Shown: positions 772 through 63,616 of the stretch, one piece after another | How the letters are laid out: every line of letters starts with the position of its first letter | Position numbering within the stretch: the first letter of the stretch is position 1 | Source of the DNA: a virus | Taxonomy: Duplodnaviria > Caudoviricetes | DNA length: 64,000 nucleotides | Strand: one strand, 5' to 3' | IMG/VR virus record: IMGVR_UViG_3300037419_000894 | Coordinates: 10,242 to 74,241 of that record | The notes under the pieces: generated by a model | Database searches by the model: none | What the model was told of the DNA's origin: nothing | The model's input: only the letters and a program-made list of their open reading frames with translations | Program-made: the position numbers and the translations under genes

Positions 772-1032
772 ATGGAATTATCCAGAGCAGGTATGGTGTG
801 GTCACAACAGGAGCTTGAACAACTCCGCACCAATTTCGGTTCAGGTATGGACCTTGAAGAGCTAATGCGGACGCAGGGTCGGTCTGCATACGCTATCATT
901 GCGAAGCTTCAGGAGATGGGCTTGATTGTGCTGGTCGGCCGTAGCAGCTACCACAAGGTTGTTCCGGATGCGTGGATTACCTCCGAAGGTATCCACTTTA
1001 TCAACAAGCAATCAAAGGGTGGCGCAAAATGA
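772..1032 (+). CDS. small HTH/Myb-like protein
   Basis: GGAG RBS; W-S-x-x-E-L...L-x-x-L...GRS-x-x-AI-x-x-KL pattern of small Myb/SANT-like helical domains. Confidence 0.55.
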   Translation: MELSRAGMVWSQQELEQLRTNFGSGMDLEELMRTQGRSAYAIIAKLQEMGLIVLVGRSSYHKVVPDAWITSEGIHFINKQSKGGAK

Positions 1033-1349
1033 TCAACGCAAACCAAATACGACTCCAGCATGTCACCGAGTTCCAACTTTGGGACGGCGAAATGACCGTG
1101 CATGCCTTTCAACATATCGGCGCCCACGGCTTCCCAAGCGCTGCAATCGTCATCACACGTATGGACGACCCAATCGAAACACGAGTGTGGTCAGGATACG
1201 GGCGTTACAAGCCTAGCGAAAAGCCAACTGAAGCTCACATGAGTCAGTGGATTGCAGATCAACTTAATCGCTTAGCAACGGGCGCCTATGGCAGCACGTC
1301 AGCAATTGTTGAAATTCGTTCGCCTGATGTAAGGATCATCTATGGGTAA
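1029..1349 (+). CDS. hypothetical protein
   Basis: ATG at 1029 overlaps previous stop (ATGA); in frame with listed ORF 972..1349. Confidence 0.6.
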   Translation: MINANQIRLQHVTEFQLWDGEMTVHAFQHIGAHGFPSAAIVITRMDDPIETRVWSGYGRYKPSEKPTEAHMSQWIADQLNRLATGAYGSTSAIVEIRSPDVRIIYG

Positions 1350-1737
1350 GCACTACCGCGACCCGAAAGACAAGCCCACATTGTTGGAGCAACACTACAA
1401 TGATGTGGACAAGTACCCGTCGCCTTACCACACTCTCAAAGACGTGTGCGAAGCACTGCTCAACGCTCCGGCCGACAGCGAGGGTGCACAGCGCGTGCTG
1501 TACGCTGTGCTAGTGCCTGAAAATCCGGTCCGCGACAAGCAAGCGCATTGCAGGTATTATCTCACTTATGCAGGTGCTAAAGCTTGGATCGAAGGACATA
1601 ACAGCACGCGCGTTACCAAGCAGAACGAAGGCAACAAGCGCAAGGCGAAATTGCTAGTGTACAGCCCTGATGAGATGCGTACCTACCTCATTCAACTTGC
1701 ACCACAAAACAACGAGGGGAGCAATGAGTCTAGTTGA
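1342..1737 (+). CDS. hypothetical protein
   Basis: 131 aa ORF overlapping neighbours, operon-like packing. Confidence 0.6.
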   Translation: MGKHYRDPKDKPTLLEQHYNDVDKYPSPYHTLKDVCEALLNAPADSEGAQRVLYAVLVPENPVRDKQAHCRYYLTYAGAKAWIEGHNSTRVTKQNEGNKRKAKLLVYSPDEMRTYLIQLAPQNNEGSNESS

Positions 1738-1882
1738 CTTCTTATTCGAGAAACGCACCAAGCTCGAGCTAGCAAAAGAGCTTGCCAAGACGGCACACGA
1801 GAACGCAGCTCTGCGCAACCGCGTGTACGAACTTGAGCATGAGCTTTTCTGGCTCAAGGCAATCACACCACCACAGGAGTAA
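1724..1882 (+). CDS. hypothetical coiled-coil protein
   Basis: GGGAG RBS before ATG 1724; heptad-like LELAKELAKTAHENAALRNRVYELE. Confidence 0.5.
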   Translation: MSLVDFLFEKRTKLELAKELAKTAHENAALRNRVYELEHELFWLKAITPPQE

Positions 1883-1992
1883 TTATGACTAATCCGACCA
1901 ATCAAAAACAGCTCAAGTAGCGCCACAGCGTAAGCCCTTCAGTGGGCTTACTCGGTTGCACTGCTGTCAATAACCACAACAGGGAGCTTACA

Positions 1993-2187
1993 ATGGAACA
2001 AGAAGAAATCTGGATTAACGGTGTGCAGTATGAAGCAAAGCGAGCAACGCTCAGCCACGGTTGCTCAGGTTGCGTAGCCTATCAACTGTTACCTAGCGGC
2101 TCGAGGTACATCAATCAGCAGTTGTGTGGTCAACTTCCGAAGTGTGTAGCACCTAATGTAGTCTTTACTCTCAAACAGGAGAAATAA
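1993..2187 (+). CDS. hypothetical Cys-containing protein
   Basis: GGGAG RBS before ATG 1993; CSGCVA...CGQLPKC. Confidence 0.5.
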   Translation: MEQEEIWINGVQYEAKRATLSHGCSGCVAYQLLPSGSRYINQQLCGQLPKCVAPNVVFTLKQEK

Positions 2188-2667
2188 ATGCGTAAAGTTC
2201 AAATTCTGGCTCGTGAGCTCGATGCGGGCGACATCCTCGTCACGGACGATGCTCGCGACGTTGTTACCCAAGTCATTGATACTGGTGAACCTCTGATCAC
2301 CGTATGCGCAGCACGGTTAGGCCTGGGGAACTGCTCGGACTATCCTGTCAACTGGCATCGAGATTCGAAGGTCTTTGTCGAGCGTCCGCTGCCGAACCCA
2401 ATGGATGGCTTGTATGCTATCGGTACGCCGGTGCTTGTGGACGTCGATGTGGACATGTTTCGCACTGGTGTAGTGTGCGGCGTAAGGGTGGAAACAAAGG
2501 TCGTCGCATCGCTTGTGAGCAACGTTACGCCTGAAAACGCAAGTTCAAATGTGCAATATCAAATTATTTGGACCAAAGGGTCTGTAGGAACAAACCACCC
2601 TTGGTTCGAGCAACATCTCGTTAAGGCTACAGCATCTGAGTTTCATCAAATCAAAAAGTTCCTATAA
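2188..2667 (+). CDS. hypothetical protein
   Basis: GGAG RBS, abuts previous stop, 159 aa. Confidence 0.65.
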   Translation: MRKVQILARELDAGDILVTDDARDVVTQVIDTGEPLITVCAARLGLGNCSDYPVNWHRDSKVFVERPLPNPMDGLYAIGTPVLVDVDVDMFRTGVVCGVRVETKVVASLVSNVTPENASSNVQYQIIWTKGSVGTNHPWFEQHLVKATASEFHQIKKFL

Positions 2668-2734
2668 CAGTGCTACAACGCAAGCTCCTGCCCATGCGGT
2701 GGGCTTGCTTGGTAACACTCACAAAGGAGGAAGT

Positions 2735-3022
2735 ATGAAACATACTACTGAAACAGAAGATTTTGTCCTCGCAACCGAGGACGGCAAACAGTTCGTGCAG
2801 GTCAAGAGGGGTGCTTGGAATGATACACCGTACATCGAACTCACGACGGAGTTTGCGCGAGCTACTCCAATGAAGTCTGAGTCGGTCTTTCGGACGCACA
2901 GCATCACAATCAAAGATTATTGCGGAGCAACGCGCCGCATCCCAATTAAGATCACTCGCGTAGTCGAAGTGATGACTGAGGAGCTTAATTTTAACCTGCC
3001 TCCGGAGGACGGACATGGCTAA
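2735..3022 (+). CDS. hypothetical protein
   Basis: AGGAGG RBS before ATG 2735. Confidence 0.65.
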   Translation: MKHTTETEDFVLATEDGKQFVQVKRGAWNDTPYIELTTEFARATPMKSESVFRTHSITIKDYCGATRRIPIKITRVVEVMTEELNFNLPPEDGHG

Positions 3023-3386
3023 CCCTGCGCACACTCGACGTGCTACAGCTCAGGAGGCTGTAGAATTTAATCAGATGCGGTGGCAGTCTAAAAACTGGCA
3101 GCGTCTGCATGAGTTGAGTCTGGAATTTGTTCGCACAGGTTCATTCAAGTGTAAAGAAGACCAACAAGCTCACTCTGAAGTGACTAAGGCTTGGCATGCT
3201 GAACTTATGACTTCGAAGTTCCGCTTCGGGGCACATGGCTTGCAGGTGGTCAAAGAACGCAATGAGCGAGTTGTGCGCCCCAAGCGCACCGCAGGCAGGG
3301 CTTTTTACAGCCATTGTGAACTGTGCACAAGGCCTCTAGTTGGCGCAGAACGAAAGAGTCCTGCTTGTGCAGATTGCTCACCTTAA
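3015..3386 (+). CDS. hypothetical protein with C-terminal CxxC...CxxC
   Basis: GGAGG RBS; CELC...CADC putative Zn ribbon. Confidence 0.6.
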   Translation: MANPAHTRRATAQEAVEFNQMRWQSKNWQRLHELSLEFVRTGSFKCKEDQQAHSEVTKAWHAELMTSKFRFGAHGLQVVKERNERVVRPKRTAGRAFYSHCELCTRPLVGAERKSPACADCSP

Positions 3387-3420
3387 TTAACGGACCCAAA
3401 TGCAGCATTGGTATCCGTGC

Positions 3421-3499: not shown

Positions 3500-3760
3500 A
3501 TGACTAAAGTATCTGAAAAACGGCCCAACGGCCCGTTCGACCTGCGCATCAGCGAGCGGCAGCGTAAGCTGCTGGTGCGTGCGCTCACCGAAGGTTTGTC
3601 GGACGACTTCGTCCTGACACTCATGTCCGAGAACGCGCAGAGTGTGGTCATGGGCAACAATCTCCAACAACTCCAAGAGTTGACCAGCATGCTCAGCACC
3701 CTTCCCGACAACAATGTAGCGGGCATGCTGCACGCTCTTTTGCATGCGAGCGAACGATGA
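3500..3760 (+). CDS. hypothetical protein
   Basis: AAGGA RBS before ATG 3500. Confidence 0.6.
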   Translation: MTKVSEKRPNGPFDLRISERQRKLLVRALTEGLSDDFVLTLMSENAQSVVMGNNLQQLQELTSMLSTLPDNNVAGMLHALLHASER

Positions 3761-4047
3761 CCACACAACAGCGCACAATCAAGACGGTTTACCGTTTTCA
3801 AGGCGAAGAGACCAAGGTGACCACAGCCTGCAATCCCAACCGCGCTGTCGCTAAATGCGTCGAGCACTTGCAAGTGAATGACTACGGCGCAACGGTTGCC
3901 GAGGTCTACGATCGCGAAAGCGGGGTTTTGCACGCCATTGTCAAGCGTAGCATTAACGGTAGCATTAACATTGCCTACCGTTACAACCCTGAAGACTTCA
4001 AACCCATGCGTCTGTCTCTCGGCGCACTGCTGGAGGAAAAGAAATGA
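3757..4047 (+). CDS. hypothetical protein
   Basis: ATGA overlaps at both ends. Confidence 0.65.
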   Translation: MTTQQRTIKTVYRFQGEETKVTTACNPNRAVAKCVEHLQVNDYGATVAEVYDRESGVLHAIVKRSINGSINIAYRYNPEDFKPMRLSLGALLEEKK

Positions 4048-4307
4048 CCACACCATCATTCAGAACGCTCAAGGCGCTACGCATGTGGCACTGGCAGCAG
4101 ATGAAGACGCACCGTGCAGAGCAAGACCGCTTGGAACGGCTTGTGGATCAATCAACTCGCGCGCACCACAAGAAAGAGTATCGCGAGGAGGCGCGTCAGC
4201 ACCGCATGCTAGCAGACCTCCACCTATCTGCTGTGCAAGTGCTGAACGACAGTGTGCCTGGAACTGCTGAACAAGACTGCGCAGAGGAGGACGCTCAAAA
4301 GACTTAA
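4044..4307 (+). CDS. hypothetical protein
   Basis: GGAGG RBS, ATGA overlap. Confidence 0.6.
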   Translation: MTTPSFRTLKALRMWHWQQMKTHRAEQDRLERLVDQSTRAHHKKEYREEARQHRMLADLHLSAVQVLNDSVPGTAEQDCAEEDAQKT

Positions 4308-4381: not shown

Positions 4382-5836
4382 ATGTCAAGAACTTGGTCAC
4401 CCTATCAACAAACCATCTTTGCTTTCGTTGCTGAAGCGAATGCTGGTAACGCAATCGTGAACGCAGTTGCTGGTTCTGGTAAATCTACAACTATTGTCGA
4501 AGCCTGTAACCACATCCCGTCCGGGCAAACGCACCTCATGCTCGCGTTCAACAAGTCGATCGCAGAGGAGCTGAAGGAACGCGGCGTCAACGCTCGCACC
4601 TTCCACTCGCTGACGTACACGCCTGTGACGCGTGCTAAAGGCACGTCGTCGGTGGATTCGAACAAGCTGCGCACCATCTGCAAGATGAAGATGCCCAGCA
4701 AGGACGAATTCTTGTACGCCAACTTCTGCTGCCGGCTGGTTGGCATCGTGCGCCAAATGGGTATCGGGTTTCTATGCCCGGATGAGCGCTGGGTGTACGA
4801 AGACGTCATCGATCACCACATGCTCGAACTGGACAGCGAGAATGCTGAACTGGACGTGGCAATCGACTACGCCCAAAAGCTGCTCACATGGTCCAACGCT
4901 AGCCCGGTGGTCGATTTTGACGATCTGCTGTACCTCGCAGTGAAAGACAATATTGCGCTGCCGAAGTACGACTTCATCTTCGTTGACGAAGCCCAGGACA
5001 CCAACGCTATCCAGCGTGAAATCCTGCGCAAGATCATGAAACCAACCTCGCGCATCATTGCAGTGGGCGACCCGGCACAAGCAATCTACGGCTTCCGCGG
5101 CGCCGACAGCAACTCGCTCAAGCGCATTGAAGACCAGTTCGGTGCAACCAACCTGCCGCTGACCGTTTCGTATCGCTGCGGCACCGAGATCGTCAAGTAC
5201 GCTCAGCAGTGGGTGCAGCACATTGAACCCGCGCCGGGTGCTCCGGCAGGTGTGGTCAACGATCTCAACAAGGACTGGAACACTGGCATGTTCCAGTCGG
5301 ACGACCTTATCGTCTGCCGTACAACGAAGCCACTGGTCGCGCTGGCGTACAGGCTGCTGCGCGATCGCATCCCAGCGAAAATTATGGGGCGCGACATTGG
5401 TGCGGGTCTGATCTCACTCATCAAGCGTCAGAAAGCTACCAGCATTGATCAGCTGATCGAACGCGTTAGCAACTGGGCAGCGCGTGAAGCGGATGCAGCA
5501 TTGCTGCAAGGTAAGGAGTCCAAAGCGCAGGCGCAACAGGACAAGGCTGACGCTATTATCGTGCTGTGCGAAACCCTGCCGGAGCACGAGCGCACGGTCG
5601 AACATCTGGTGGAGGTCATCAACAACCTGTTCACCGACCGCGCGAGCAACTGCCTCACCCTTGCCACTATCCACAAGGCTAAGGGCATGGAAGCTGACCG
5701 CGTGTGGTGGCTCAACCGCCGGCAGTGCCCTGCAAAATGGGCCAAGAAAGACTGGATGCAAGAGCAGGAACGAAACCTTTGCTATGTCGCCACGACGCGA
5801 GCAAAATCTGAACTCAACCTTATTGAGGAGCGTTAA
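4382..5836 (+). CDS. UvrD/Rep-like superfamily 1 helicase
   Basis: Walker A AVAGSGKST, Walker B FVDEAQD, VGDPAQAIYGFRGA, SYRC, TIHKAKGME, YVATTRAK motifs. Confidence 0.9.
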   Translation: MSRTWSPYQQTIFAFVAEANAGNAIVNAVAGSGKSTTIVEACNHIPSGQTHLMLAFNKSIAEELKERGVNARTFHSLTYTPVTRAKGTSSVDSNKLRTICKMKMPSKDEFLYANFCCRLVGIVRQMGIGFLCPDERWVYEDVIDHHMLELDSENAELDVAIDYAQKLLTWSNASPVVDFDDLLYLAVKDNIALPKYDFIFVDEAQDTNAIQREILRKIMKPTSRIIAVGDPAQAIYGFRGADSNSLKRIEDQFGATNLPLTVSYRCGTEIVKYAQQWVQHIEPAPGAPAGVVNDLNKDWNTGMFQSDDLIVCRTTKPLVALAYRLLRDRIPAKIMGRDIGAGLISLIKRQKATSIDQLIERVSNWAAREADAALLQGKESKAQAQQDKADAIIVLCETLPEHERTVEHLVEVINNLFTDRASNCLTLATIHKAKGMEADRVWWLNRRQCPAKWAKKDWMQEQERNLCYVATTRAKSELNLIEER

Positions 5837-5837
5837 A

Positions 5838-6041
5838 ATGCAATCATTAAAGAGCCCGACTCACGAACAACTGATTCAAGCTCACACCGACATTGTAAGC
5901 GTTGACGAGAATGTCGAAATTGTCGTGGACAAAATCGGTCACGTTGTGTGGGTGAACATCGCGGGCGCGTGCGTCCTACGTGTTCACGGCGCAAGGAATG
6001 TGGTCATCAAGGACGAACGCAACAAAAAACCAGCCAACTGA
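5838..6041 (+). CDS. hypothetical protein
   Basis: GAGGAG RBS before ATG 5838. Confidence 0.55.
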   Translation: MQSLKSPTHEQLIQAHTDIVSVDENVEIVVDKIGHVVWVNIAGACVLRVHGARNVVIKDERNKKPAN

Positions 6042-6118: not shown

Positions 6119-6505
6119 ATGGCTGCAATCAACAATCGAGATTTGAACTTTATTCTGACCACTGTCATTGAAGGTGGTAGCGCCTACTGGGCGAATGATA
6201 GTGATGTGTGTCAAACTGTTGAAATCAAACGTGAAGCAGACTCTGATGAAGATTTGCGCTCATTGAAGTTGGTTAGTGAGATCAAAATAACCACAGACGT
6301 CGATGGCAAAGGTTGGAAAACTCAGACCATTACTGCAACTGAAATGCGCAAGGCGCTGAAAGCAATGAAGGAAGATCAGAAATTGCCTGAGCATCTGCGC
6401 AAAATGGCTCGTAAGCTTCTGAATAATGGCGACGAAGATTACGATGCTGGCGACGCTGACGTGATCTTTCAATACGCTCTGTTTGGTGAAATCGTGTTTG
6501 GTTAA
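6119..6505 (+). CDS. conserved phage hypothetical protein
   Basis: AAGGAG RBS before ATG 6119; EGG-x-x-YWA and DAGDADVIFQYALFGEIVFG ends resemble a recurrent phage family. Confidence 0.65.
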   Translation: MAAINNRDLNFILTTVIEGGSAYWANDSDVCQTVEIKREADSDEDLRSLKLVSEIKITTDVDGKGWKTQTITATEMRKALKAMKEDQKLPEHLRKMARKLLNNGDEDYDAGDADVIFQYALFGEIVFG

Positions 6506-6914: not shown

Positions 6915-7387
6915 CCAAAACACCCAAACTCACGAAGCGAGCGCAAGAAGACTTGATTATCTCTCAAGCGCTTGCAATCATCAACCGGCGTATGCATCGG
7001 AAGGATTACATTCTCAATCAGCCCAACGTGCTTGAAGATTACTTGCGGCTCAAGCTTGACCACATGGACCGCGAAGTCTTTGGTGCACTGTTTCTAACAA
7101 CTACGTTTCAGCTTATCGACGACGAAGTGCTATTTCAAGGCACGCTGTCGCATACACAAATCGTACCGAGAGAGATTGTGCGCGCAGCGCTCAAGCACAA
7201 CGCTGCGTTCGTGATCTTTTACCACAACCATCCACACGGGGACGACAACCCGAGCGGCCAGGACTTGATCATTACCAAGTCTCTAAAGACTAGTCTTGCA
7301 ACCGTGGATGTAAAGGTAGTCGACCATATCATTGTACCGCGTGGCCGACAGAACGTATTCTCTTTCTCAACTGCCGGAGTGCTGTGA
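6911..7387 (+). CDS. radC: RadC-like JAB/MPN+ domain protein
   Basis: REVF...YHNHPHGDDNPSGQD (intact H-x-H-x7-S-x2-D JAMM motif), VVDHIIV. Confidence 0.85.
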   Translation: MTKTPKLTKRAQEDLIISQALAIINRRMHRKDYILNQPNVLEDYLRLKLDHMDREVFGALFLTTTFQLIDDEVLFQGTLSHTQIVPREIVRAALKHNAAFVIFYHNHPHGDDNPSGQDLIITKSLKTSLATVDVKVVDHIIVPRGRQNVFSFSTAGVL

Positions 7388-7686
7388 TGCCTAACATGGG
7401 TCTGTACAGACGCGCACCTGCTCCAAAGAGGGTAGAACGTCTGTGCAAGCAGTGTGGTCAAAAGTTCTCGCCACGGGCAGTAGATGTCGCGCGTGGCTGG
7501 GGTCTGTTTTGCAACAAGGGCTGCAAAGCTGTATACCAGTCGGGTCACGCTCGACCAAGACAACAACCCAAGCCAAACAAGCCTGCCGCTGCGCACGAAG
7601 TTGAGCATGCAGCAGTGCAGTCAAATTTCGACGAATGGGACCGTATTTGTGCTCAGGAAGATGCTTTATTAACTCAACGGAGATAA
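7387..7686 (+). CDS. putative Zn-finger protein
   Basis: CKQCG...RGWGLFCNKGCK. Confidence 0.6.
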   Translation: MPNMGLYRRAPAPKRVERLCKQCGQKFSPRAVDVARGWGLFCNKGCKAVYQSGHARPRQQPKPNKPAAAHEVEHAAVQSNFDEWDRICAQEDALLTQRR

Positions 7687-8843: not shown

Positions 8844-9812
8844 ATGACCGACAAGACCACCCCCGCAGGCATCGACCTGGACCGCGATACCGTCCGCGCC
8901 GTGTTCATGAAGCACGGATTCACCATCAAGGAAGGGCAAACCGATCTCAAACCGTATGTGTATGCGGCAGCGGCAGAACTGATTGCGATCGCCCGTCAGC
9001 CGCGCGTGAGCGAACAGGCGGACGGGCGGGCGCTGCCGGCGTTGCCTGAGCCAATCCACACGTATGAGGCTCACATGGGGTTGCGCGTACCAGCCTTTTC
9101 CACCGAGCAGATGCATGCTTATGCCCGCGCCGCCCTCAACCTGCACGCTGCGCCCGAAGCACCAGCCACCCAGCAGGCAGGATCGGCTGTCGAGGGAACA
9201 TGGGAACCAATGGGCAAGTTCGCTGAACGGTTAGTACCTGCGGCCACCACGGCAAGCGCCCTGCCCCTCATCACCGATGCCGACCTGCCAGCGACACTCG
9301 AGCCTGGCTTCTACCTTGTGGGCGTCACGGCAAGCGCGAGCGGGGAGCCCTTCATGTGGTTCGATCCGGAACAGGTCGAGCGGGCAAAGCTGACGGACTA
9401 CGCTGACCACATCGGCATCTTCGGGTCGAGCGTCAAGTTTGGTAGCTTTACGGCACCACTCTACCGCACCCCAGTACCCAGCCGTGAGGCTGCACCGCTG
9501 GACAATGGAGAAGTCGCCCGCCTACGCCGTGTGGTGCGTGCCCTCAACATGGAGTCGCAAGTTCCTGACGATGATGCGACGTTGCGGGGCTGCCTGTTCT
9601 CCGTACTCGGGATGATCGCGTACAAGCTGGAGTGCGCAGCCCGCGCCGAGCAGGGCGCAGGACAGGTAGCACAAGAAATCTCCAACGGTTTGGTCCAATT
9701 CTTTGATGAATGGGAACAAATTATCCCGCAAGATGCCCGTGCAGCACTCCAAACGATTGTGAGTAAGTGTAGGGAATCTCTCACTCCAACACCAACCAAA
9801 CAGGGAGAATGA
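8844..9812 (+). CDS. hypothetical mosaic accessory protein
   Basis: AAGGA RBS, 322 aa, Ala/Pro-rich linkers between short modules. Confidence 0.6.
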   Translation: MTDKTTPAGIDLDRDTVRAVFMKHGFTIKEGQTDLKPYVYAAAAELIAIARQPRVSEQADGRALPALPEPIHTYEAHMGLRVPAFSTEQMHAYARAALNLHAAPEAPATQQAGSAVEGTWEPMGKFAERLVPAATTASALPLITDADLPATLEPGFYLVGVTASASGEPFMWFDPEQVERAKLTDYADHIGIFGSSVKFGSFTAPLYRTPVPSREAAPLDNGEVARLRRVVRALNMESQVPDDDATLRGCLFSVLGMIAYKLECAARAEQGAGQVAQEISNGLVQFFDEWEQIIPQDARAALQTIVSKCRESLTPTPTKQGE

Positions 9813-10027
9813 CATGCCAGTCTATACAATGATCGACCAAATGTCTCGTATTGCCATTGACATTTACATGGAATGGTGGTTCCAGTTGTGGTCACCGAAC
9901 TGGCTGGTGCTACCTCCCGTGCAACCAGAGTAGACCCTGCCTGTTGCAAATAGTTTAGTACGAACGTTGTGATAAGCGCTGGGGGTGTGTAATAATACCC
10001 CCTCGCAACACTTTGAGCTTAAATAAG

Positions 10028-10279
10028 ATGCAAACCAGTAATAACACATCCATCCTGGATGCTCAAAAAGAGTTTGACGACAAATACATAACGGCGTCCG
10101 AAGTGATGCAGTTGTTGGACATTGATCGGTCCGTCTTATTGTACGCCCGTAACCACAACAAACTTCCCGCGCCTATCTCCGCGAACGGCGGGCGTGTGCT
10201 GTTGTGGGAACGCAAAGTAATCCAGCCTTATTTGGATAATTGGAAAAAGAGCCTGCAAACTCGCCGGGGTGAGCGTTAA
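10028..10279 (+). CDS. AlpA/excisionase-like HTH DNA-binding protein
   Basis: YITASEVMQLLDIDRS...KLPAPI...LLWER winged-HTH pattern; directly precedes the primase. Confidence 0.7.
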   Translation: MQTSNNTSILDAQKEFDDKYITASEVMQLLDIDRSVLLYARNHNKLPAPISANGGRVLLWERKVIQPYLDNWKKSLQTRRGER

Positions 10280-12825: not shown

Positions 12826-12902
12826 TCCAAAGCTAGCGCCGCGCCCCTACATGCGTTATAATGGGGTGCAGTACGTTAATAACCACACAACAAGGAGTCA
12901 CA

Positions 12903-13794: not shown

Positions 13795-14244
13795 ATGTCA
13801 GACGACAAAGAAGTGCCTAAGACCGCCCTGCCGGTCGTTGAAGTTGTCACGCAGGAAGAAATGAATGAGTGGTACGAGCTCACTCAGAAGATGGCGGAAA
13901 TGAAGACCCGCGAATTGGTCCTCCGCAACAAAATCTTCAACAGCTACTTCCCCGATCCGGTGGAGGGCACCAACAACATCCCGCTCGAAGATGGCTTCGT
14001 GCTCAAGGCCCAGTACAAGCTGAACCGCACCGTCGACGAAGCTGTGCTCTCCGAGAAGGCTCAGGAGTTCAAGGATGCCAAGATCCCCGTGAAAGATCTG
14101 GTGGTGCTCAAACCCGAACTGTCAACCCGCGTCTACCGCGAACTGACCGAAGAACAGCGCGCCCTGTTCGACAAGGCGCTGGTTATCAGACCCGGCACCC
14201 CGCAACTGGAAATCACCAAAGCCAAGCGCGCGCTGCGCAAGTAA
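13795..14244 (+). CDS. conserved phage protein of the replication module
   Basis: AGGAG RBS before ATG 13795; strong codon bias; followed by terminator. Confidence 0.75.
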   Translation: MSDDKEVPKTALPVVEVVTQEEMNEWYELTQKMAEMKTRELVLRNKIFNSYFPDPVEGTNNIPLEDGFVLKAQYKLNRTVDEAVLSEKAQEFKDAKIPVKDLVVLKPELSTRVYRELTEEQRALFDKALVIRPGTPQLEITKAKRALRK

Positions 14245-14252
14245 CCACACAG

Positions 14253-15868: not shown

Positions 15869-15948
15869 ACCTGTTACCCGCACTGCGGAGTTTATAACCG
15901 GACGCCCTGACCACACAGCAGGGCCGTTCACTAACTATTGGAGTCACA

Positions 15949-17957: not shown

Positions 17958-17966
17958 AGTGACCAC

Positions 17967-48782: not shown

Positions 48783-49616
48783 TTATTTCTCCAATGGATA
48801 TTTCTGACGCCGCCCCTTTAGCGGATAAGCTTGTTGGCGCCCGTACAGCGGGAAGTGCCTTGGTATCACAATACCACTCAGCAAGCTCACTGAGGGGCAA
48901 GAGTTCACTTGCCTACACAACGTTACAAGGATTTCATGCCGCTGCGTAACTAATCCGCCCAATGATTGATTTACTTGGCTACACGGGGAGGACAGAAGCC
49001 TATAATGTTGCGACACCGATCCTGCGCTACAGCTGTTTGCTTGGTCCACAGCTGCACCAGTTAATTGATAATGCTGTTGGACACTCCCGCTATCTGCGGA
49101 ATTGACCTGAGTGCACTCAGCGGCAGTTAACGTAGCTCTGCCTTGAGTTGGAATTGCACCTGTGGAGCTACTGTTCGTCTGGCTGCAATCGCTAGCTGTG
49201 AGTTCATGGTGCTGTATAACCACACTACCGCTTGAAGTGTGGTTATTGACATCGCTACCGCCAATGAGTTCGTGATGTTGCACTACCAGTGCAGACAAGC
49301 TCAAGTTCACCTGCGAGCTGTCCGCAGCTAGTAGTTTGTGACGCGATGCCACAACCCCAGAACCAGATGCATTCGCTTGTGAGCTATTTTCTGCGGTCAG
49401 CTCATGACGGACCCCTGTGACCACACCTACTGAAGAAGTATTGGTCTGGGTGCAATTCGCACCAATAAGTTCGTGGTGTTGTGTTACAACACCGGTAGCG
49501 CTGGAATTGACTTGAGCAGAACCAACTGCGGTCAAAGTGTGGCGGGTGACCGTTGTGCTGGTGCGCGCACCGAGGCCGAGCGATCGTAGGCCTAGCGGTA
49601 TTAGGCCGAGCGCCAT
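48783..49616 (-). CDS. virion fibre-like protein with about ten 22-aa tandem repeats
   Basis: repeat unit H-x-L-x4-5-Q-x-N-x3-4-G-x-V read directly from the translation. Confidence 0.65.
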   Translation of the reverse strand: MALGLIPLGLRSLGLGARTSTTVTRHTLTAVGSAQVNSSATGVVTQHHELIGANCTQTNTSSVGVVTGVRHELTAENSSQANASGSGVVASRHKLLAADSSQVNLSLSALVVQHHELIGGSDVNNHTSSGSVVIQHHELTASDCSQTNSSSTGAIPTQGRATLTAAECTQVNSADSGSVQQHYQLTGAAVDQANSCSAGSVSQHYRLLSSPCSQVNQSLGGLVTQRHEILVTLCRQVNSCPSVSLLSGIVIPRHFPLYGRQQAYPLKGRRQKYPLEK

Positions 49617-53868: not shown

Positions 53869-53903
53869 CGACTTTTTACGCTGCCTTTTGTGACCACACT
53901 CCA

Positions 53904-54258: not shown

Positions 54259-55806
54259 TTAGTCTTTTGGTCCAGCGTTGTTACGAAGCTGGGTCTGAGT
54301 TGGTGCCCCAGTTGCGGGCGTTGCAGCAGCCTTAGGCCCCTGTTTCCTCACATTGCCCGGAGTGGTTGGTGCACCATGCCCGGCAATAGGCACAGGAGGC
54401 TTGTACGGGTGCTTTTTGATATCCTCCTGCTCCTTCTCAACGGTAGCTTCCACCGGCACGATTTCCCCTTTCTTGAGGTTCTCGAACATGGTCTCGTAAC
54501 TGTACGCGCCGTTCTGCCAACCTGCAATAATCGCGGTAAGCTTAAGCGAATCCATCGGGACAGGGAAGAAGTCGCGGTTCAGCTCGAACTTCACGTCACC
54601 TTCTGCTTCAGCATACTCGCAGAAAGTTTCCAGGCTCTTTTGCAGACCGATAGAGATGGTTTGTGCAACACTGGACAGAGTGGACTGCTCACCGCTGCGG
54701 TGGATGGCAGCAGTGTCAGCAGCTTCAACCCCCTGCACCTGCGGCTCTAGCATGCGCGCACCAAGGACGGCCATGTACTGTTCTTTTTTGTTTAGGTTCT
54801 CGCGCAGCTCCGACAAACCTTGGCCCGTGAACTCCAGATAAGTCGCCTTTGCATCTGGTCGCGGGAACAGCCATGCGGTCATGCTACCAATGCAGAACTT
54901 TTCGTCTTTGGACGGGTCGGCAACGTAACCGCTGATAACTGGTGTGGGCAAGCCTGTGAAGTGGCAACCGTGCTCGTAATCTGCGACCACACGATAATGT
55001 GCGAGGTTGACGTCGACAAGGTCGATCAGCGGCGGCTCGTCGATCTCCCAGCTAGTGTCGTCTACTCCCATGAACTGGAATGGGATGTAGTCCAGGCGCT
55101 TGCCGTTAATGGTTGGGCGATTAACGCTATCAACTACGTCTTTGCCGTCCTTGTCGACGTGCATAATCCGAACACGGTAAAGCTGTTGTTCTTCGCCTGT
55201 TCCCTCGTTGACCACACTCTCAAGGTCAAGAACACGATACTGCGTCGTACCCTTGTTTTCGAACTCGTCGACCGCAACGTCCTTGACTTCTTTCAGCACT
55301 ACCATGGAGAGACTGGTCACGTTATCGATGGTCCGGGTCTTCCAGTTAATGATGGACTTAGCGGTGTACATCTTCATCGACGGACGCAGCTTCTTGCGTT
55401 TAGCATCGGCAAGCGTCAGGCCGTCCGGGACTTCCGGATAATCCACGAACACACCCGTGCGGCCAAGCTTGAGGCACTCCTCGGCAACCTTAAGCGAGAA
55501 CATGTGCAGGGAGGTGCCTGCAAGGTCGATGTTTTTCAGCATATCTTCAACAGGCGCAGGCACCTTGACTGTAACAGGCTTGCGGAAGATCATGCCTTGC
55601 AGGCCGCTAATGGTGCGCCACGTTGCATTATAGAACGTTGCTCGATTCTTGTACGCCTTGTATTCCGCAGGATCCTGCTCCGACAGCTTGGGCAAATAGA
55701 TCTCGCCCGCAGCGTGGACAGCAGCTTGACCCTTGCATACATCGATGCAGCGGTCCCACTTGTCGCTCATGTCCTTATAATCCGGATGTTCGTAGCTAAC
55801 AGGCAT
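54259..55806 (-). CDS. portal protein (DUF4055 type)
   Basis: YLPK...Y-x-x-Y-x-x-RA-x-FYN-x-T-x-RT, GRTGVFVDYP, PPLIDL-x-x-VNLAHY; follows terminase. Confidence 0.88.
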   Translation of the reverse strand: MPVSYEHPDYKDMSDKWDRCIDVCKGQAAVHAAGEIYLPKLSEQDPAEYKAYKNRATFYNATWRTISGLQGMIFRKPVTVKVPAPVEDMLKNIDLAGTSLHMFSLKVAEECLKLGRTGVFVDYPEVPDGLTLADAKRKKLRPSMKMYTAKSIINWKTRTIDNVTSLSMVVLKEVKDVAVDEFENKGTTQYRVLDLESVVNEGTGEEQQLYRVRIMHVDKDGKDVVDSVNRPTINGKRLDYIPFQFMGVDDTSWEIDEPPLIDLVDVNLAHYRVVADYEHGCHFTGLPTPVISGYVADPSKDEKFCIGSMTAWLFPRPDAKATYLEFTGQGLSELRENLNKKEQYMAVLGARMLEPQVQGVEAADTAAIHRSGEQSTLSSVAQTISIGLQKSLETFCEYAEAEGDVKFELNRDFFPVPMDSLKLTAIIAGWQNGAYSYETMFENLKKGEIVPVEATVEKEQEDIKKHPYKPPVPIAGHGAPTTPGNVRKQGPKAAATPATGAPTQTQLRNNAGPKD

Positions 55807-57272
55807 TATACCCCTCCAATCTTAACTTTGTGGTGAACGTGGTCAGCAGCAAGGACGCGATAACGGGTGTCGTCTGCTGCATGGTCTTCTGCGTCAGTAT
55901 CAACGTCGTCCGGATCGCGTTGGTCTCGCGGAATCGGGGGCACTGTACGGATCCAATCGCGGCATGTGTCAAATACGTACAAGCCTGGCTTGTCCTTCAA
56001 GTTGTGGTCAGTAACAGCTGAGAGGCGATCACGCATAAGCTCCCAACCGTTGTGGCGGCTACCAGGCTTCTTATCAGCCAGAGTCCAGAACACACCTTCA
56101 GACTCCATATTCTGGCCAATAGACGCATCGTCCGTAACGTTGTAGATTGCCGAGTCAGCTGGACCGAACTGTACGCGGCCTTCAATGCCCATTTGCCGTT
56201 CACGTGCAAGGATGCCAATTGCAACGTTCTTTGCGGTCATTCGGACACCTTCGTTCGGCTTGCCCGTGCAACCGTACCATTCCCCGATGCGGATGAGCGT
56301 CTTTGGCGGGAAGCTGCGGCTCGTACCATCTGCCATAACAGCGTCACTACCGTCGGTCTGCGCCCACCATCCCACGCTGAATGGTTTGCTTGAGCCCCAG
56401 TCAAACGATCTGTCAATGCGCCAAGTGTGTGGGATCTTAAATGGCTTCAGGATATGAGCACGCGCATCCCAAATATCGTCGAACATGCCACCTGACGTAA
56501 TATCCCAGCTACCCTCGAGCCACGCTTTCCGTTTGTTGATATCGGTAATGGACTGAAGCGTCTTAATGTAATCTGCACCAAGGAACGGATTCTCTTTAAC
56601 TGAGCCGAACAGTGCTACACGCTTGTTACCTTCCTCATCTGTGACCACACGCCCATAAGGGGCTGGGTCAATGAAGTATTGCTTCACCCAATTGTGGCCA
56701 ACGCCATACGGGTTTGTGGAGCTCCGAATGTGGCGCGGAATCATTGGTAGACGGTCGGTCGCTTGGAATGATGAGCGGTTGCACGACTTCATCGATTCGT
56801 AGCAGTTGATCGACGGCCAGCTAGTTAATTCTTCCCAACCGATGAACGGATATTCGTGGCCGTGGTAGGACCAGTAATCTTCTTCGTCTTCAAATGCACG
56901 GAGCAGGAGCTCTTCACCAGTGGGCCACACCCACTTAAGGCTTGAACTTCCTGCAAGAAAGCGAGGCTTCTGCGCTGATCGATTGAACCACCGTTTCGAC
57001 TTAGAGATAATATCATCCAAGTGCTTGTAGTTTCGTCGAAAAATAATGCCCCGCCAATAGTCCCCGTATCCTCGACCGCAATATTGAGCAAAGGCGAACA
57101 GCATGGAGTCCGTTTTACCCGGGCCGCGAGTACCTGCAAAGCAGACCTCACGGATAGGGCATTGCAGAAAAAGGCTCTGGCTTCCCGGCAGAGCTTTCCA
57201 AACGGGCGGAGGAAGTTCAATTTTCTTCCTTTCGGGTACAATTATCCCTCCGCTGCTGTTCTCCCAAAACAT
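55806..57272 (-). CDS. terL: terminase large subunit
   Basis: AGTRGPGKT Walker A, IGWEELT Walker B, STNPYG, SFDWGSSKPF, EDHAADDTRY. Confidence 0.93.
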   Translation of the reverse strand: MFWENSSGGIIVPERKKIELPPPVWKALPGSQSLFLQCPIREVCFAGTRGPGKTDSMLFAFAQYCGRGYGDYWRGIIFRRNYKHLDDIISKSKRWFNRSAQKPRFLAGSSSLKWVWPTGEELLLRAFEDEEDYWSYHGHEYPFIGWEELTSWPSINCYESMKSCNRSSFQATDRLPMIPRHIRSSTNPYGVGHNWVKQYFIDPAPYGRVVTDEEGNKRVALFGSVKENPFLGADYIKTLQSITDINKRKAWLEGSWDITSGGMFDDIWDARAHILKPFKIPHTWRIDRSFDWGSSKPFSVGWWAQTDGSDAVMADGTSRSFPPKTLIRIGEWYGCTGKPNEGVRMTAKNVAIGILARERQMGIEGRVQFGPADSAIYNVTDDASIGQNMESEGVFWTLADKKPGSRHNGWELMRDRLSAVTDHNLKDKPGLYVFDTCRDWIRTVPPIPRDQRDPDDVDTDAEDHAADDTRYRVLAADHVHHKVKIGGV

Positions 57273-58037: not shown

Positions 58038-58421
58038 TCAGCGCCACTCGCCAATATGCCAGAAATCGATATTTTGTCGAGTCTTTAAGATCTCCAGCAC
58101 ATCATTGAGCAGCTCTTGCTGACGAGCAGACCTCGGTCCAGTGTGTAACTGAATGACATGGAGGTTATCTAAGCCCTGTACCTGATCCCATAACCACACA
58201 TATCTGGCGACAATACCGGTCACCTTGCGAAAATCGTCTGCAAAACGGCTGCTGTCTGCCAAAATAATGACCCGTTTGTCCATCGTCAGGGTTTTCAACA
58301 CCCGCAGCATGGTCTGCACGTCGCCCGGCTCTGCTATTCGCGGTTGCCCTTGACGTGGGCGGCGCAGCGTTTCCTCGATTAGTGCACGCAGCACCGACAC
58401 AGCTCTAGTAAGTGCCATCAT
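58038..58421 (-). CDS. hypothetical protein
   Basis: ATG at 58421/58418 with GGGA RBS, overlapping VRR-NUC end. Confidence 0.55.
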   Translation of the reverse strand: MMALTRAVSVLRALIEETLRRPRQGQPRIAEPGDVQTMLRVLKTLTMDKRVIILADSSRFADDFRKVTGIVARYVWLWDQVQGLDNLHVIQLHTGPRSARQQELLNDVLEILKTRQNIDFWHIGEWR

Positions 58422-59054: not shown

Positions 59055-59558
59055 TTAGTTCTCCAATTCATCCCATTTAACGTCCTGCATTCGCTTTGTC
59101 ATGCCCTTTTCAAGCATAAGGTGCATTGCGTAGTCGTGGCAGACAAAGAAGTCCTCCATCTGACCTGTTTCTTCGTTCTTACGCGACACAATACCGAAGT
59201 TCTCACGCTTGATGTCTGTAAAGAAGGCTGGGATTTTAGGAGGCCACTCTCCCTTACCGGGTCGACGCGTCTTTTCCATGATGAGAAGTCGACCATCTTG
59301 AGAAATGTACCGAGCACGAGCAAACCAGCAGTCAAAGGAAGTGCCCTTAATCGTGAGCCAGAGCTCCCACTCGATCACATTGTCAAAACGGTAGATCTCG
59401 TTTTGAATTTTGACCACACAACCTTCGACGAGGAAGCATTCGTAGACCGTTCGGCTGCTTCCATAAGCAATCGGGTTGTCGCAGATGAGCAATTTGAGTG
59501 CGCATTCTGCAACCTTGTGCTCATCGCGGATACGCGGGTAGTTGTACTGAGGAATCAT
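59055..59558 (-). CDS. minimal protein-kinase-like protein
   Basis: GSSRTVY (Gly loop), VVK, N-x-x-E, LIME, DIKRENFG (catalytic loop), HDYA (DFG-equivalent). Confidence 0.7.
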   Translation of the reverse strand: MIPQYNYPRIRDEHKVAECALKLLICDNPIAYGSSRTVYECFLVEGCVVKIQNEIYRFDNVIEWELWLTIKGTSFDCWFARARYISQDGRLLIMEKTRRPGKGEWPPKIPAFFTDIKRENFGIVSRKNEETGQMEDFFVCHDYAMHLMLEKGMTKRMQDVKWDELEN

Positions 59559-59758
59559 CACATCTCCCATTTGCGCCAGCACAGTGACAGAGCTTCTGTG
59601 ACGCTGAAGCCATTGTCCTTGCAGGCTTTGAATTTTACAAACATCTGTCTGGCTTGGTAGTCAAACAGTGCGGCTTGCAGCTTCCAGTCAGTGTTCCGCA
59701 AAGCTGAAAGCGCGTTCGCGCGCAGGCGCTCTTGTTCGTCTGGTGTAGGTGTGGTCAT
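59558..59758 (-). CDS. hypothetical protein
   Basis: GGAGG RBS; overlaps neighbours. Confidence 0.55.
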   Translation of the reverse strand: MTTPTPDEQERLRANALSALRNTDWKLQAALFDYQARQMFVKFKACKDNGFSVTEALSLCWRKWEM

Positions 59759-60441: not shown

Positions 60442-61236
60442 TTATACTGCGACCGGCGCTTTGATGGCTGGATGCGGGTAGTAGTCGTAAAAGAAGAAGT
60501 CCTCGTATTTGTAGCCGAAGATTGAGTCAGGCTTGCGTCGGATTTCCAACGTTGGCAGATTTCTCGGTTCGCGCGACAATTGAACCTCTACCTGATCCAT
60601 GTGGTTGGAGTAGATATGGCAGTCGCCACCGGTCCAGATAAACTCGCCCACTTCCAGACCTGCCTGCTGGGCCATCATGTGTGTCAGCAGGGCATAGGAA
60701 GCGATGTTGAACGGCACGCCCAGGAAGATGTCGGCGCTGCGCTGATACAGCTGGCAGGACAGTTTACCGTCGGCGACGTAGAACTGGAACAGGGCGTGGC
60801 ACGGCGGCAGCTTCATATTCGGAATGTCCGCAACGTTCCAGGCCGACACGATCATGCGGCGCGAGTCCGGATTGTTTTTGATCTGGGTCAATACTTCAGC
60901 GATTTGGTCGATATGCTCGCCGGAGGGCGTCGGCCAGCTGCGCCACTGAAAACCGTAGATCGGGCCTAGGTAGCCTTCTTTGTCCGCCCATTCGTCCCAA
61001 ATCTTGACGCCGTTGTCTTGCAGATACTTGACGTTCGTATCGCCGCTGAGAAACCAGAGCAGTTCATGGATGATGGATTTCAGGTGCAGCTTCTTTGTGG
61101 TCACCAGTGGGAAGCCGTCTTGCAAGTTGAAGCGCATCTGGTAGCCGAACACGGAGCGCGTACCGGTGCCGGTGCGGTCGGTCTTGACCACACCATGTGA
61201 ATGGACGAACGCCATAAAATCGAGGTATTGTTTCAT
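60442..61236 (-). CDS. thyA: thymidylate synthase
   Basis: [59 protein letters not shown]. Confidence 0.97.
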
Positions 61237-62354: not shown

Positions 62355-62536
62355 TATTCTTCCTTTGTGGTGAGGGATTTAAGGTGCGCGTCTAAGGTGC
62401 GTTGTGCGCGCCGATGCTCAATGTGCTCCAAAATACGGACAACTGCAATGAGTACGCCGCAGATGATGCCCGTTAGGAGTATGACGAAGCCTAACGGGTC
62501 GTCGCGGATTTGTTGAAGGAAGTACATGGTGACCAC
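62354..62536 (-). CDS. small membrane protein
   Basis: single hydrophobic helix; TAATG coupling to next gene. Confidence 0.55.
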   Translation of the reverse strand: MVTMYFLQQIRDDPLGFVILLTGIICGVLIAVVRILEHIEHRRAQRTLDAHLKSLTTKEE

Positions 62537-62545
62537 ACTCCGTGA

Positions 62546-63172
62546 TTACGGGTGGTTCTTGGCGTAGCGACGGATAGCTGTGCGCATTTGGTCCAAACTG
62601 ATGCCTAGCTTACAAGCCTTGGTCTGCATGTCGTGGCTTTTTACACGTTTGTAAGAAACGATAGTATTGTATTCTCGGGCGTTGGCAGGCAAGATTGAGC
62701 CGTCTTTGATTGGGCCAGTGCAGACTGAACGGTCATAGGCTTCGGTCTCGCGATAATATTCCGCAACCAACTCATCAGCCTTTTGATCGAGCGGGTCTAC
62801 AACAAACTCGCCAAAGAGTTCTTTGCGCAGTGCGAGCGGAGGGAGGTCAAGAAGTTTAAAGTGATCTTTGACCCAATTGTCTGGAGTGGGATTGCTAACG
62901 ATGATTATTCCAGCGTCGTCGCGCAAAGGCCCTTCGCCAACCGCACCGTAATGCTTCTCAACCAGCTTGGCACCAATGCTCGCCATTAGGTGCTCAGTTT
63001 GCTTGCGCTGGCGCTCTTTAAGCCAGTTGCGCAGCTTCTCACACAAGTTGACCACACTCATGGAGATGAGGAGCAGGGCTATAGCGCCCGCGGAGAAGAG
63101 TAAGGCGAGGAGGAGTTTGGCGTGGGAATCGTTGCTGAAGGCTTGTGCAGCTGCGAGGGCAAGTTCGTGCAT
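62546..63172 (-). CDS. membrane-anchored hypothetical protein
   Basis: GGAG RBS; N-terminal TM segment; 208 aa. Confidence 0.6.
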   Translation of the reverse strand: MHELALAAAQAFSNDSHAKLLLALLFSAGAIALLLISMSVVNLCEKLRNWLKERQRKQTEHLMASIGAKLVEKHYGAVGEGPLRDDAGIIIVSNPTPDNWVKDHFKLLDLPPLALRKELFGEFVVDPLDQKADELVAEYYRETEAYDRSVCTGPIKDGSILPANAREYNTIVSYKRVKSHDMQTKACKLGISLDQMRTAIRRYAKNHP

Positions 63173-63210
63173 GTGAGACTCCGGTACTGGTTATTGTTGC
63201 TGTTATTAAG

Positions 63211-63284
63211 CCTCTAGGAGAGGATTCGAACCTCGTGGTGTGAGACCCATGTTCTCACCGCATCCCATGCTCTGCCACCTAGAG
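63211..63284 (-). ncRNA. tRNA-like RNA with non-canonical anticodon arm, no CCA
   Basis: acceptor CTCTAGG/CCTAGAG, D arm GCAG...TGC, GAGG-TTCGAAT-CCTC T arm; anticodon stem GTGAGA/TCTCAC with loop ACATGGG. Confidence 0.6.
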
Positions 63285-63386
63285 TAGTTCGGTTGGTTGT
63301 TCACCACTCCGTTCCCAGCTTGCCCCACCACAGAGCGCAATCTTGCTACTGCTGTGCTTTACTACTTAGCCCGAAGGGCTAGTGTC

Positions 63387-63493
63387 TGGCGCCCCTTGCA
63401 GGATTCGAACCTGCCTCTCCCGGCAAACCAAGGCTCACGAAGCGGGATTACGTGAGCTAGGGTCGAGCGTTATGTCCAGTCTACTATTAGGGC
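63387..63493 (-). ncRNA. tRNA-like RNA (107 nt) with 32-nt hairpin insertion in the anticodon loop
   Basis: GCAGG-TTCGAAT-CCTGC T arm, encoded CCA, GG-containing D loop; anticodon loop expanded to 39 nt. Confidence 0.6.
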
Positions 63494-63500
63494 TTTATTC

Positions 63501-63576
63501 TGGTTGTAGAGGCTGGAATCGAACCAGCGACGCACAGATTTTCAGTCTGCCGCTCTACCGACTGAGCTACTCCACA
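63501..63576 (-). tRNA. tRNA-Phe(GAA)
   Basis: 76-nt cloverleaf: TGTGGAG/CTCTACA acceptor, GCTC/GAGC D stem, loop CTGAAAA, GCTGG-TTCGATT-CCAGC, encoded CCA. Confidence 0.93.
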
Positions 63577-63616
63577 CTTGTACTTCTTATGACCACACTC
63601 CACTAGTGGTACGGGT

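Follow-up and report, generated by a model that had tools for sequence, protein, structure and literature searches.

A dispersed and evenly spaced CCACA-core word in phage genomes as a probable recognition site of the phage primase-helicase

Introduction

Sequence-specific priming is textbook biology, usually in the form of a preference for three or four bases that genomes meet by chance. [quoted passage not shown] The NrS-1 polymerase initiates on the template 5′-TTTGGTTA-3′, and more efficiently on 5′-GTGG/GTGA-3′, with the first base upstream as the start (PMC8718748), and the gp4 primase of phage T7 uses sites of the form 5′-(G/T)(G/T)GTC-3′, among which the flanking sequence selects the active ones (PMC12839067). 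Here, we describe a short word, TGACCACAC, that is scattered over a 64,000-nucleotide stretch of phage DNA (hereafter the window; bases 10242-74241 of virus record IMGVR_UViG_3300037419_000894, which is 74,241 bp long and rated complete), together with its counterparts in phages that encode a related primase-helicase.

We propose that the underlying motif, T-[G/A]-[A/C/G]-CCACA (T-R-V-CCACA), is probably a hard-wired site at which the phage's own primase-helicase recognises its template and initiates. Sequence-specific priming by archaeo-eukaryotic primase (AEP) enzymes is known; a genome-wide, evenly spaced and polar array of extended sites appears to be undescribed. No description of the motif word, its complement or its dialects, or of over-represented or evenly spaced primase sites, was found in full-text searches of the literature.

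Occurrence of the motif

TGACCACAC is present in 41 exact copies in the window (27 on the plus and 14 on the minus strand), whereas shuffles that preserve dinucleotides gave 0.58 copies on average and never more than 4. In the whole record there are 48 copies (33/15), compared with 0/2 of the reversed control word. A first-pass annotation of the window had arrived at the same number, strands and coordinates, and all 13 of its positions for the variant TAACCACAC/GTGTGGTTA are correct. Single-base variants across the genome give the position weights T, G>A, A, C, C, A, C, A, C>A/G, with TGACCACA reaching 66 and TAACCACA 20 copies; the signal is a weight matrix and no fixed word. From comparison of the sequences, TGACCACAC is best understood as the local dialect of the wider motif T-R-V-CCACA.

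Among over-represented 8-mers, this motif ranks first in each of the 16 tested genomes with a homologue of the primase-helicase, and likewise in two partial uncultured relatives whose contigs lack the primase region; the core CCACA is invariant in 18 genomes. Searches with the primase protein matched 395 phage records. The cultured carriers comprise 12 phages with primase homologues of 27-59% identity, and the motif is the top 8-mer in each of them; ten of the 12 were analysed de novo (27-44% identity), and their top 8-mer was T-[G/A]-[A/C]-CCACA in 10/10. Five uncultured relatives were reached through the major head protein, two of them complete (69-72 kb) and three with a primase homologue. 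The motif family comes out on top in all five, one favouring TGCCCACAC and the others adding TAACCACAC or TGGCCACAC; in more distant capsid relatives the motif was not found. PaMx25 and Iggy, in which the capsid is unrelated and the replication module related, both have the motif, with TGACCACA present 33 times in the 50 kb of PaMx25 (1.8 expected) and TAACCACA 36 times in Iggy (1.2 expected).

Carrier hosts span gamma-, alpha- and beta-proteobacteria. Cultured carriers include phages of E. coli (9g, Seurat) and Pseudomonas (PaMx25, Iggy, PaMx42), and further hosts are Vibrio, Alteromonas, Stenotrophomonas, Xanthomonas, Rhodobacter and Sphingomonas. Three dialects occur, namely TAA (R7M and Seurat, and Iggy too), TGA (9g, Vibrio phage R29Z and Salva, and PaMx25 too) and TGC (PaMx42, DLP1, XAJ2, RcSpartan and Kharn). 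On the primase tree, the TGC dialect forms one deep clade, and TGA and TAA switch repeatedly. All three are found in phages of a single host, P. aeruginosa (PaMx25 TGA, Iggy TAA, PaMx42 TGC), and the reader is therefore phage-encoded and no host factor. The idea in the first-pass annotation of a decoy for a host protein founders on the same dialect differences and on the recurrence of one motif across three proteobacterial classes; a host Chi signal or an uptake sequence was also rejected, as the motif follows phage lineage and not host.

Genes common to 12/12 cultured carriers encode the primase-helicase, a Cas4-like exonuclease, an SF2 helicase, a clamp-like protein, a DNA polymerase and the portal. 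The motif is not enriched in five (pro)viruses whose capsid is related (51-54% identity; four of the five are 96-100% complete) and which have no primase homologue. T-R-V-CCACA is also not enriched in eight phages that have homologues of the exonuclease and the SF2 helicase and lack a detectable homologue of the primase N-terminus. The motif tracks the primase, from 16/16 genomes with a homologue to 0/13 contrast genomes without an N-terminal one. Other strongly enriched words, each with GTGG on one strand, are present in five of the eight exonuclease/helicase contrast phages: ACCCACAA in Salmonella phage birk, TGCCACAGG in a Synechococcus phage (Ssp-JY38), TGCCACAC in POR1, NCCACAGR in Rhizobium phage RHEph05 and GTCCACAG in Me-ZS1. 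Several of these are evenly spaced (RHEph05, for example, with a coefficient of variation, CV, of 0.26-0.34); the other three phages (Mcat27, H40/1 and 1N2-2) have no comparable enriched word. GTGG-core words in other phage groups indicate that the phenomenon is wider than the T-R-V-CCACA group.

The 43-44-kb genomes of PaMx42, DLP1, RcSpartan and Kharn have two further peculiarities. GAG/CTC occurs only 5-38 times on both strands, at 0.00-0.03 of expectation, which looks like a separate and very strong constraint. GTG/CAC is depleted 2-4-fold, with about half of the CCACA pentamers lying within TGCCCACA; this depletion could reflect avoidance of stray priming sites. The window's genome has neither depletion (GTG 1.03, GAG 0.76).

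Selection on the DNA word

By our gene calls, which are rough, about 18% of the genome is non-coding. Called genes contain 32 of the 48 exact sites, compared with 2.5 ± 1.4 (maximum 8) in 500 synonymous-codon shuffles; the other 16 are intergenic or at a gene edge, a larger share than the non-coding fraction. The first-pass annotation had staked its claim of a selected, chromosome-wide signal at the level of DNA, and not of a peptide repeat, on counts above a codon-preserving shuffle, and the claim is borne out by these counts, by conservation in distant relatives and by the turnover of sites at retained density described below.

The annotation had also placed sites in several reading frames, at gene starts and between genes. 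All of these are seen, with the addition that frame use is uneven: 26 of the 32 coding sites share one frame, which reads xTG-ACC-ACA-Cxx (Thr-Thr) in sense and xGT-GTG-GTC-Axx (Val-Val) in antisense orientation and is the cheapest fit of TGACCACAC into protein. The TGA of three sites ends a gene, and several others lie on ATG starts (ATGACCACAC). A word fitted where the cost to protein is lowest is a signature of selection on DNA rather than on peptides.

Conservation of position, which the annotation had named as a check, is partial. In alignable regions, 15-40% of sites share an alignment column with relatives and the rest have moved, while density and spacing are kept. Such turnover at constant density speaks against individual sites having fixed regulatory tasks. 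The sites of the window are as follows (coordinates, strand, word).

796..804, minus, exact TGACCACAC
1185..1193, minus, exact TGACCACAC
2124..2132, minus, exact TGACCACAC
3642..3650, minus, exact TGACCACAC
3758..3766, plus, exact TGACCACAC; TGA is stop codon of upstream gene
4045..4053, plus, exact TGACCACAC; TGA is stop codon of upstream gene
5250..5258, minus, exact TGACCACAC
7452..7460, minus, exact TGACCACAC
12611..12619, plus, exact TGACCACAC; inside primase gene
15908..15916, plus, exact TGACCACAC; intergenic
15998..16006, minus, exact TGACCACAC
17960..17968, plus, exact TGACCACAC; intergenic
19009..19017, plus, exact TGACCACAC
26164..26172, plus, exact TGACCACAC; overlaps start codon (ATGACCACAC)
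26678..26686, plus, exact TGACCACAC
28204..28212, plus, exact TGACCACAC
28371..28379, minus, exact TGACCACAC
30805..30813, plus, exact TGACCACAC; DNA polymerase gene
31348..31356, minus, exact TGACCACAC; DNA polymerase gene
32828..32836, plus, exact TGACCACAC
33399..33407, plus, exact TGACCACAC
33785..33793, minus, exact TGACCACAC
34510..34518, plus, exact TGACCACAC
37545..37553, minus, exact TGACCACAC
37884..37892, plus, exact TGACCACAC
40097..40105, plus, exact TGACCACAC; tape-measure gene
43295..43303, minus, exact TGACCACAC; tape-measure gene
44702..44710, plus, exact TGACCACAC; intergenic
46398..46406, plus, exact TGACCACAC
46907..46915, minus, exact TGACCACAC
47282..47290, plus, exact TGACCACAC; inverted pair with site at 47270
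49418..49426, plus, exact TGACCACAC
53891..53899, plus, exact TGACCACAC; intergenic
55209..55217, plus, exact TGACCACAC; portal gene
56642..56650, plus, exact TGACCACAC; terminase gene
59411..59419, plus, exact TGACCACAC
59749..59757, minus, exact TGACCACAC; overlaps start codon
61185..61193, plus, exact TGACCACAC
62530..62538, plus, exact TGACCACAC; intergenic
63049..63057, plus, exact TGACCACAC
63590..63598, plus, exact TGACCACAC; intergenic, adjoins tRNA-Phe
12880..12888, plus, variant TAACCACAC
14242..14250, plus, variant TAACCACAC
22011..22019, plus, variant TAACCACAC
23626..23634, plus, variant TAACCACAC
25686..25694, minus, variant TAACCACAC
30007..30015, plus, variant TAACCACAC
34305..34313, plus, variant TAACCACAC
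41357..41365, plus, variant TAACCACAC
43941..43949, plus, variant TAACCACAC
47270..47278, minus, variant TAACCACAC
49217..49225, plus, variant TAACCACAC; inverted pair with site at 49237
49237..49245, minus, variant TAACCACAC
58191..58199, plus, variant TAACCACAC
1971..1979, plus, variant TAACCACAA
3818..3826, plus, variant TGACCACAG
4507..4515, plus, variant TAACCACAT
5998..6006, minus, variant TGACCACAT
6288..6296, plus, variant TAACCACAG
7057..7065, plus, variant TGACCACAT
9404..9412, plus, variant TGACCACAT
9886..9894, minus, variant TGACCACAA
10150..10158, plus, variant TAACCACAA
15062..15070, minus, variant TGACCACAA
20035..20043, plus, variant TGACCACAG
20548..20556, minus, variant TGACCACAA
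23346..23354, minus, variant TGACCACAA
25229..25237, plus, variant TGACCACAA
31264..31272, minus, variant TGACCACAG
31852..31860, minus, variant TGACCACAA
39257..39265, plus, variant TGACCACAG
56002..56010, minus, variant TGACCACAA
57884..57892, minus, variant TGACCACAG
61095..61103, minus, variant TGACCACAA

Some sites form inverted pairs. At 47270-47290, GTGTGGTTA-CAG-TGACCACAC could fold as a hairpin with a 3-nt loop; at 49217/49237, TAACCACAC and GTGTGGTTA are separated by 11 nt, and a further pair spans 15908-16006. PaMx25 has similar pairs, one of them at an annotated terminator (9038-9075).

Spacing and polarity

In most genomes, the sites on each strand are spaced far more evenly than under random placement, at intervals of about 1.5-3 kb with a CV of 0.3-0.5 (P<0.001). 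The minus strand of 9g carries 32 sites with a mean gap of 1.7 kb (CV 0.30), a complete relative (G002) has 58 sites with a largest gap of 2.2 kb (CV 0.42), and Seurat, Salva, R7M and PaMx25 have CVs of 0.4-0.5. In the window's genome, T[GA]ACCACA occurs at 57 sites on the plus strand (CV 0.70, P=0.002). When strand labels were shuffled over the pooled positions, each strand proved separately regular in 14 of 15 genomes, and the pooled two-strand positions are less regular than the per-strand arrays. This separate regularity points, indirectly, to a strand-specific, that is single-strand, reading and not to one array of double-strand sites.

The arrays are also polar. In 18/18 genomes, the strand antisense to the portal gene has more copies of the C-rich form than the other strand (547 vs 351, P=6e-11), and arms transcribed in opposite directions favour the same genomic strand. 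Relative to transcription, 33 sites are sense and 43 antisense.

A local exception to the polarity is seen at genome positions 7900-17700 (window 1-8000), where seven of nine exact copies are in the minority orientation; the six copies to the left of this region and most of those to the right are in the majority orientation. The switch could mark a replication origin or terminus.

The genome and its primase-helicase

The genome is that of a siphovirus, from soil and rhizosphere metagenomes. Its left arm carries early and replication genes on the plus strand, and its right arm structural genes on the minus strand, among them those for the tape measure, major head protein, portal and terminase. 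The following left-arm genes bear on the argument.

10279..12825, plus, primase-helicase of 848 amino acids (AEP primase-polymerase, HBD and DUF3987 helicase)
18131-19093, plus, Cas4/RecB-like exonuclease
19095-20882, plus, SF2 helicase
27159-28088, plus, DpdA homologue
28696-29760, plus, clamp-like protein
30399-32648, plus, DNA polymerase (family-A-like)

An ATP-dependent ligase and an AAA_24/Sak4-like protein are further encoded in the left arm. The genome's replication module is similar to those of Queuovirinae-type Pseudomonas phages such as PaMx25, NP1 and Iggy (DNA polymerase 43-46% identity). The capsid is of another type than theirs and has no close cultured relative, and a megablast search with the tape-measure gene found no close DNA relatives among deposited phages. 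Near the right genome end, a tRNA-Phe (GAA) gene (63501-63576, minus) lies 14 nt from the last copy of the motif.

The primase-helicase matches DUF3987, and matches PF22763 (the HBD of NrS-1) weakly, with 22.5 bits against a Pfam cut-off of 27.9. Searched against the PDB with phmmer, its N-terminus retrieves the SaPI5 primase-helicase (7OLA, 1.5e-10) and NrS-1 PrimPol (3-5e-6), and the catalytic motifs DxD and sGxGxH are aligned between the window's primase and the solved primases. A profile of 25 homologues matches the same two proteins in the PDB, with 4.6e-33 for the SaPI5 primase-helicase and about 6e-18 for NrS-1 PrimPol. PF22763 and PF13148 are found in most of 980 primase homologues, some of which are named 'NrS-1 polymerase family' at their source. 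By these matches, the window's primase is classed as an AEP enzyme of the NrS-1/pRN1 type.

A proposed priming site for the primase-helicase

The complement of the motif reads 5′-(N)T-GTG-G-(T/G)(C/T)A-3′, in which the invariant TGTGG corresponds to a start base T followed by GTGG. Two complements, TGTGGTTA (TAA dialect) and TGTGGTCA, match the NrS-1 template TTTGGTTA at 7/8 and 6/8 positions, respectively, and both contain GTGG. We infer that the primase, and specifically its HBD, is the reader, that the G-rich strand is the one read and that primers start at these sites.

In the mechanism that we propose, the HBD would scan the single-stranded template for the G-rich 5′-T-GTG-G-(T/G)(C/T)A-3′. 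GTG(G) would be the core, as recognised by the pRN1 and NrS-1 primases, and the T directly 5′ of it would be the primer start, giving primers that begin with A; CCACA would then be invariant because it encodes both the recognition core and the A-start. The three bases on the other side may be a lineage-specific extension of the contact that raises affinity. Selection would have placed sites on each strand every 1.5-3 kb in most of the compared genomes, about the length of an Okazaki fragment, such that lagging-strand synthesis or re-priming starts at defined places. In the majority orientation, the G-rich strand lies on the sense strand of the late (structural) genes, which would serve as the lagging-strand template if forks run with late transcription.

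Several observations weigh against this proposal. Regularity in the window's genome is weaker than in most relatives, and the spacing of its exact 9-mers alone is not significantly regular. The base after CCACA varies by lineage without an obvious rule. The primase is not the sole gene common to all carriers, and the case against the others rests on eight contrast genomes, for its phyletic part, and on the likeness of the motif to primase sites. An 8-9-nt requirement would be unusual, known primases being satisfied with three to four specified bases. In the NrS-1 genome, TTTGGTTA is found once, inside the origin iteron cluster and not scattered, and the published NrS-1 sites may reflect origin recognition rather than lagging-strand priming. 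Finally, an oligonucleotide described as including the 8-nt NrS-1 site has ...GTTTGACCATT as its end (PMC7102993); as this resembles the C-rich strand, it leaves the strand that is read uncertain.

The NrS-1 cluster itself lies at 17005-17579, directly after the primase-polymerase gene, and contains the iteron AAGTGTAACC in 11 copies (17062-17370) and both orientations. Three TTTTGACCA words border the iterons, and one of them, in the form TTTTGACCACAC, lies next to an AT-rich stretch. The iteron region is likely to be the replication origin.

Alternative explanations

A serious variant of the proposal, which we nevertheless consider unlikely, has the same protein read the motif as double-stranded DNA, for example through its C-terminal region, at dispersed helicase-loading sites or mini-origins. 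P4 alpha and SaPI Rep bind origin iterons, the NrS-1 words related to the motif lie together next to the primase gene, where the origin is presumed to be (among them the exact TTTTGACCACAC near an AT-rich stretch), and the phyletic link to the primase-helicase is as strong for loading as for priming. For a symmetric function, however, an even array on each strand, with pooled positions less regular, is unexpected, as is a strand bias conserved in 18/18 genomes. In addition, the invariant core is the GTG(G)+T priming context of AEP helix-bundle domains, and other words are used by phages whose helicase part is homologous and whose N-terminus differs.

It is distinctly improbable that the motif is a Chi-like signal for the phage's Cas4/RecB-like exonuclease and SF2 helicase, protecting or processing DNA ends in recombination-dependent replication. 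Both genes accompany the motif in 12/12 cultured carriers, and Chi-type signals are short, strand-specific, G/T-rich and polar, in keeping with the conserved strand bias. The eight contrast phages nonetheless have both genes without the motif, and three of them (Mcat27, H40/1 and 1N2-2) lack any comparable word. We know of no even spacing among Chi sites, and the match to biochemically defined primase sites would have to be a coincidence of about 1 in 1000 (7 of 8 positions, either orientation).

As a minor rival, and a very unlikely one, another phage DNA-binding protein might coat, compact or regulate the genome through the sites. The first-pass annotation had noted several small putative DNA-binding proteins in the window; about a third of the exact sites are intergenic or at gene edges, and some inverted pairs lie near gene ends. 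No such small protein is common to all carriers, though, most sites are intragenic with an orientation unrelated to transcription (33 sense, 43 antisense), and both the evenness within each strand and the polarity favour a reader that distinguishes the strands.

The motif also resembles the short, asymmetric and scattered consensus sites at which the virion DNA of T5 and of Pseudomonas phage tf is nicked in one strand. Programmed nicks of this kind are unlikely here, given that sites on both strands (27/14), dozens per genome, would fragment the DNA, that no nickase is conserved among carriers and that no mention of nicks was found in the papers searched on 9g-, Seurat- and Iggy-type phages, including nanopore work on Iggy.

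The remaining candidates were rejected. The first-pass annotation had suggested a target of DpdA (7-deazaguanine modification). DpdA/Que genes are absent from six carriers (Salva, PaMx42, DLP1, XAJ2, RcSpartan and Kharn), and three of the eight contrast phages (MeZS1, RHEph05 and SspJY38) have dpdA with another motif. Iggy's DpdA targets GA (PMC10484667), and Iggy's TAACCACA has no GA on either strand. Stoperator-like sites of the L5 type, also among the earlier suggestions, or promoters are contradicted by the same indifference to transcription and by the 32/48 exact sites that are intragenic. Over 18 genomes, the diagnostic T at position 4 of the DnaA box (TTWTNCACA) is the one base there that is not enriched (43 vs 42 expected), in contrast to A (603 vs 61), nor is the DnaA consensus itself (49 observed, 56 expected). 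A T7-type reading, in which TGGTC in the complement would template a primer ACCA..., fails on two counts, as the primase is not of the DnaG kind and GTC is missing from the TAA and TGC dialects. The central inference of the first-pass annotation, a selected DNA-level recognition site, thus stands, while the DpdA, decoy/Chi and stoperator candidates do not; a phage primase, which the evidence favours, was not on its list.

Implications

Beyond the phages analysed, the proposal has a broader form, which we hold to be evenly poised between right and wrong: a large and widespread phage group, comprising Queuovirinae and Salva-, Septimatrevirus- and Titanvirus-like phages, would write its lagging-strand priming positions into the genome, as a GTG(G)-core word of 8-9 nt every 1.5-3 kb per strand, inside genes at a cost in codon choice, and with a dialect that changes with the primase lineage. 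We give the same balanced weight to its extension, in other dialects, to Rosemountvirus-, Kleczkowskavirus- and cyanophage-like phages. If true, this would amount to a genome-encoded 'Okazaki ruler', and the specificity of a phage primase could be read from sequence alone. The genome here appears to be shaped around the primase, with an 8-9-base site, enriched about 75-fold, imposed on coding sequence.

Confirmation would provide a testable model of how AEP primase-helicases organise phage lagging-strand synthesis, would make primase specificity, replication direction and possibly origins predictable from sequence, and would supply a marker for a very large and mostly uncultured phage group. 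It would also call for caution in recoding or engineering 9g, Seurat, PaMx25, NP1 and Iggy, as synonymous recoding would erase the sites. The idea is directly testable in cultured phages of E. coli and Pseudomonas.

Comparison with known systems

The DnaA box TTATCCACA has CCACA in common with the motif, and TTAACCACA is one position off. Chi, KOPS and uptake sequences are likewise short, asymmetric, over-represented and strand-biased words tolerated in genes. They are, however, host-read and host-specific, whereas the motif described here crosses hosts, differs in dialect within one host and is evenly spaced. The stoperators of L5 offer a precedent for dozens of copies of one asymmetric word per phage genome, but they bind the repressors of temperate phages, measure 13 bp, follow the direction of transcription and are found mainly outside genes; here, the sites ignore transcription in their orientation, are mostly intragenic and belong to apparently virulent phages.

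T7 gp4 is closer in function, being a phage primase-helicase that primes lagging strands at short words, of which a subset with suitable context is used. As a zinc-finger enzyme of the DnaG/TOPRIM kind, it has no relationship to the AEP primase-helicase here, and the TGGTC in the complement of TGACCACAC is a coincidence. To our knowledge, there is no report of strong over-representation or even spacing of T7 sites.

The closest systems are pRN1 and NrS-1, with which the motif carriers share a homologous primase, a G-rich strand that holds T+GTG+G and a match of 6-7/8 to the NrS-1 8-mer. Their site was defined in vitro, and that of NrS-1 occurs about once, at the origin. The motif carriers, in contrast, have an 8-9-nt form in 50-100 copies per genome, arranged in even arrays on both strands, and their primase-helicase stands beside a separate family-A-like DNA polymerase, rather than acting as the sole replicase.

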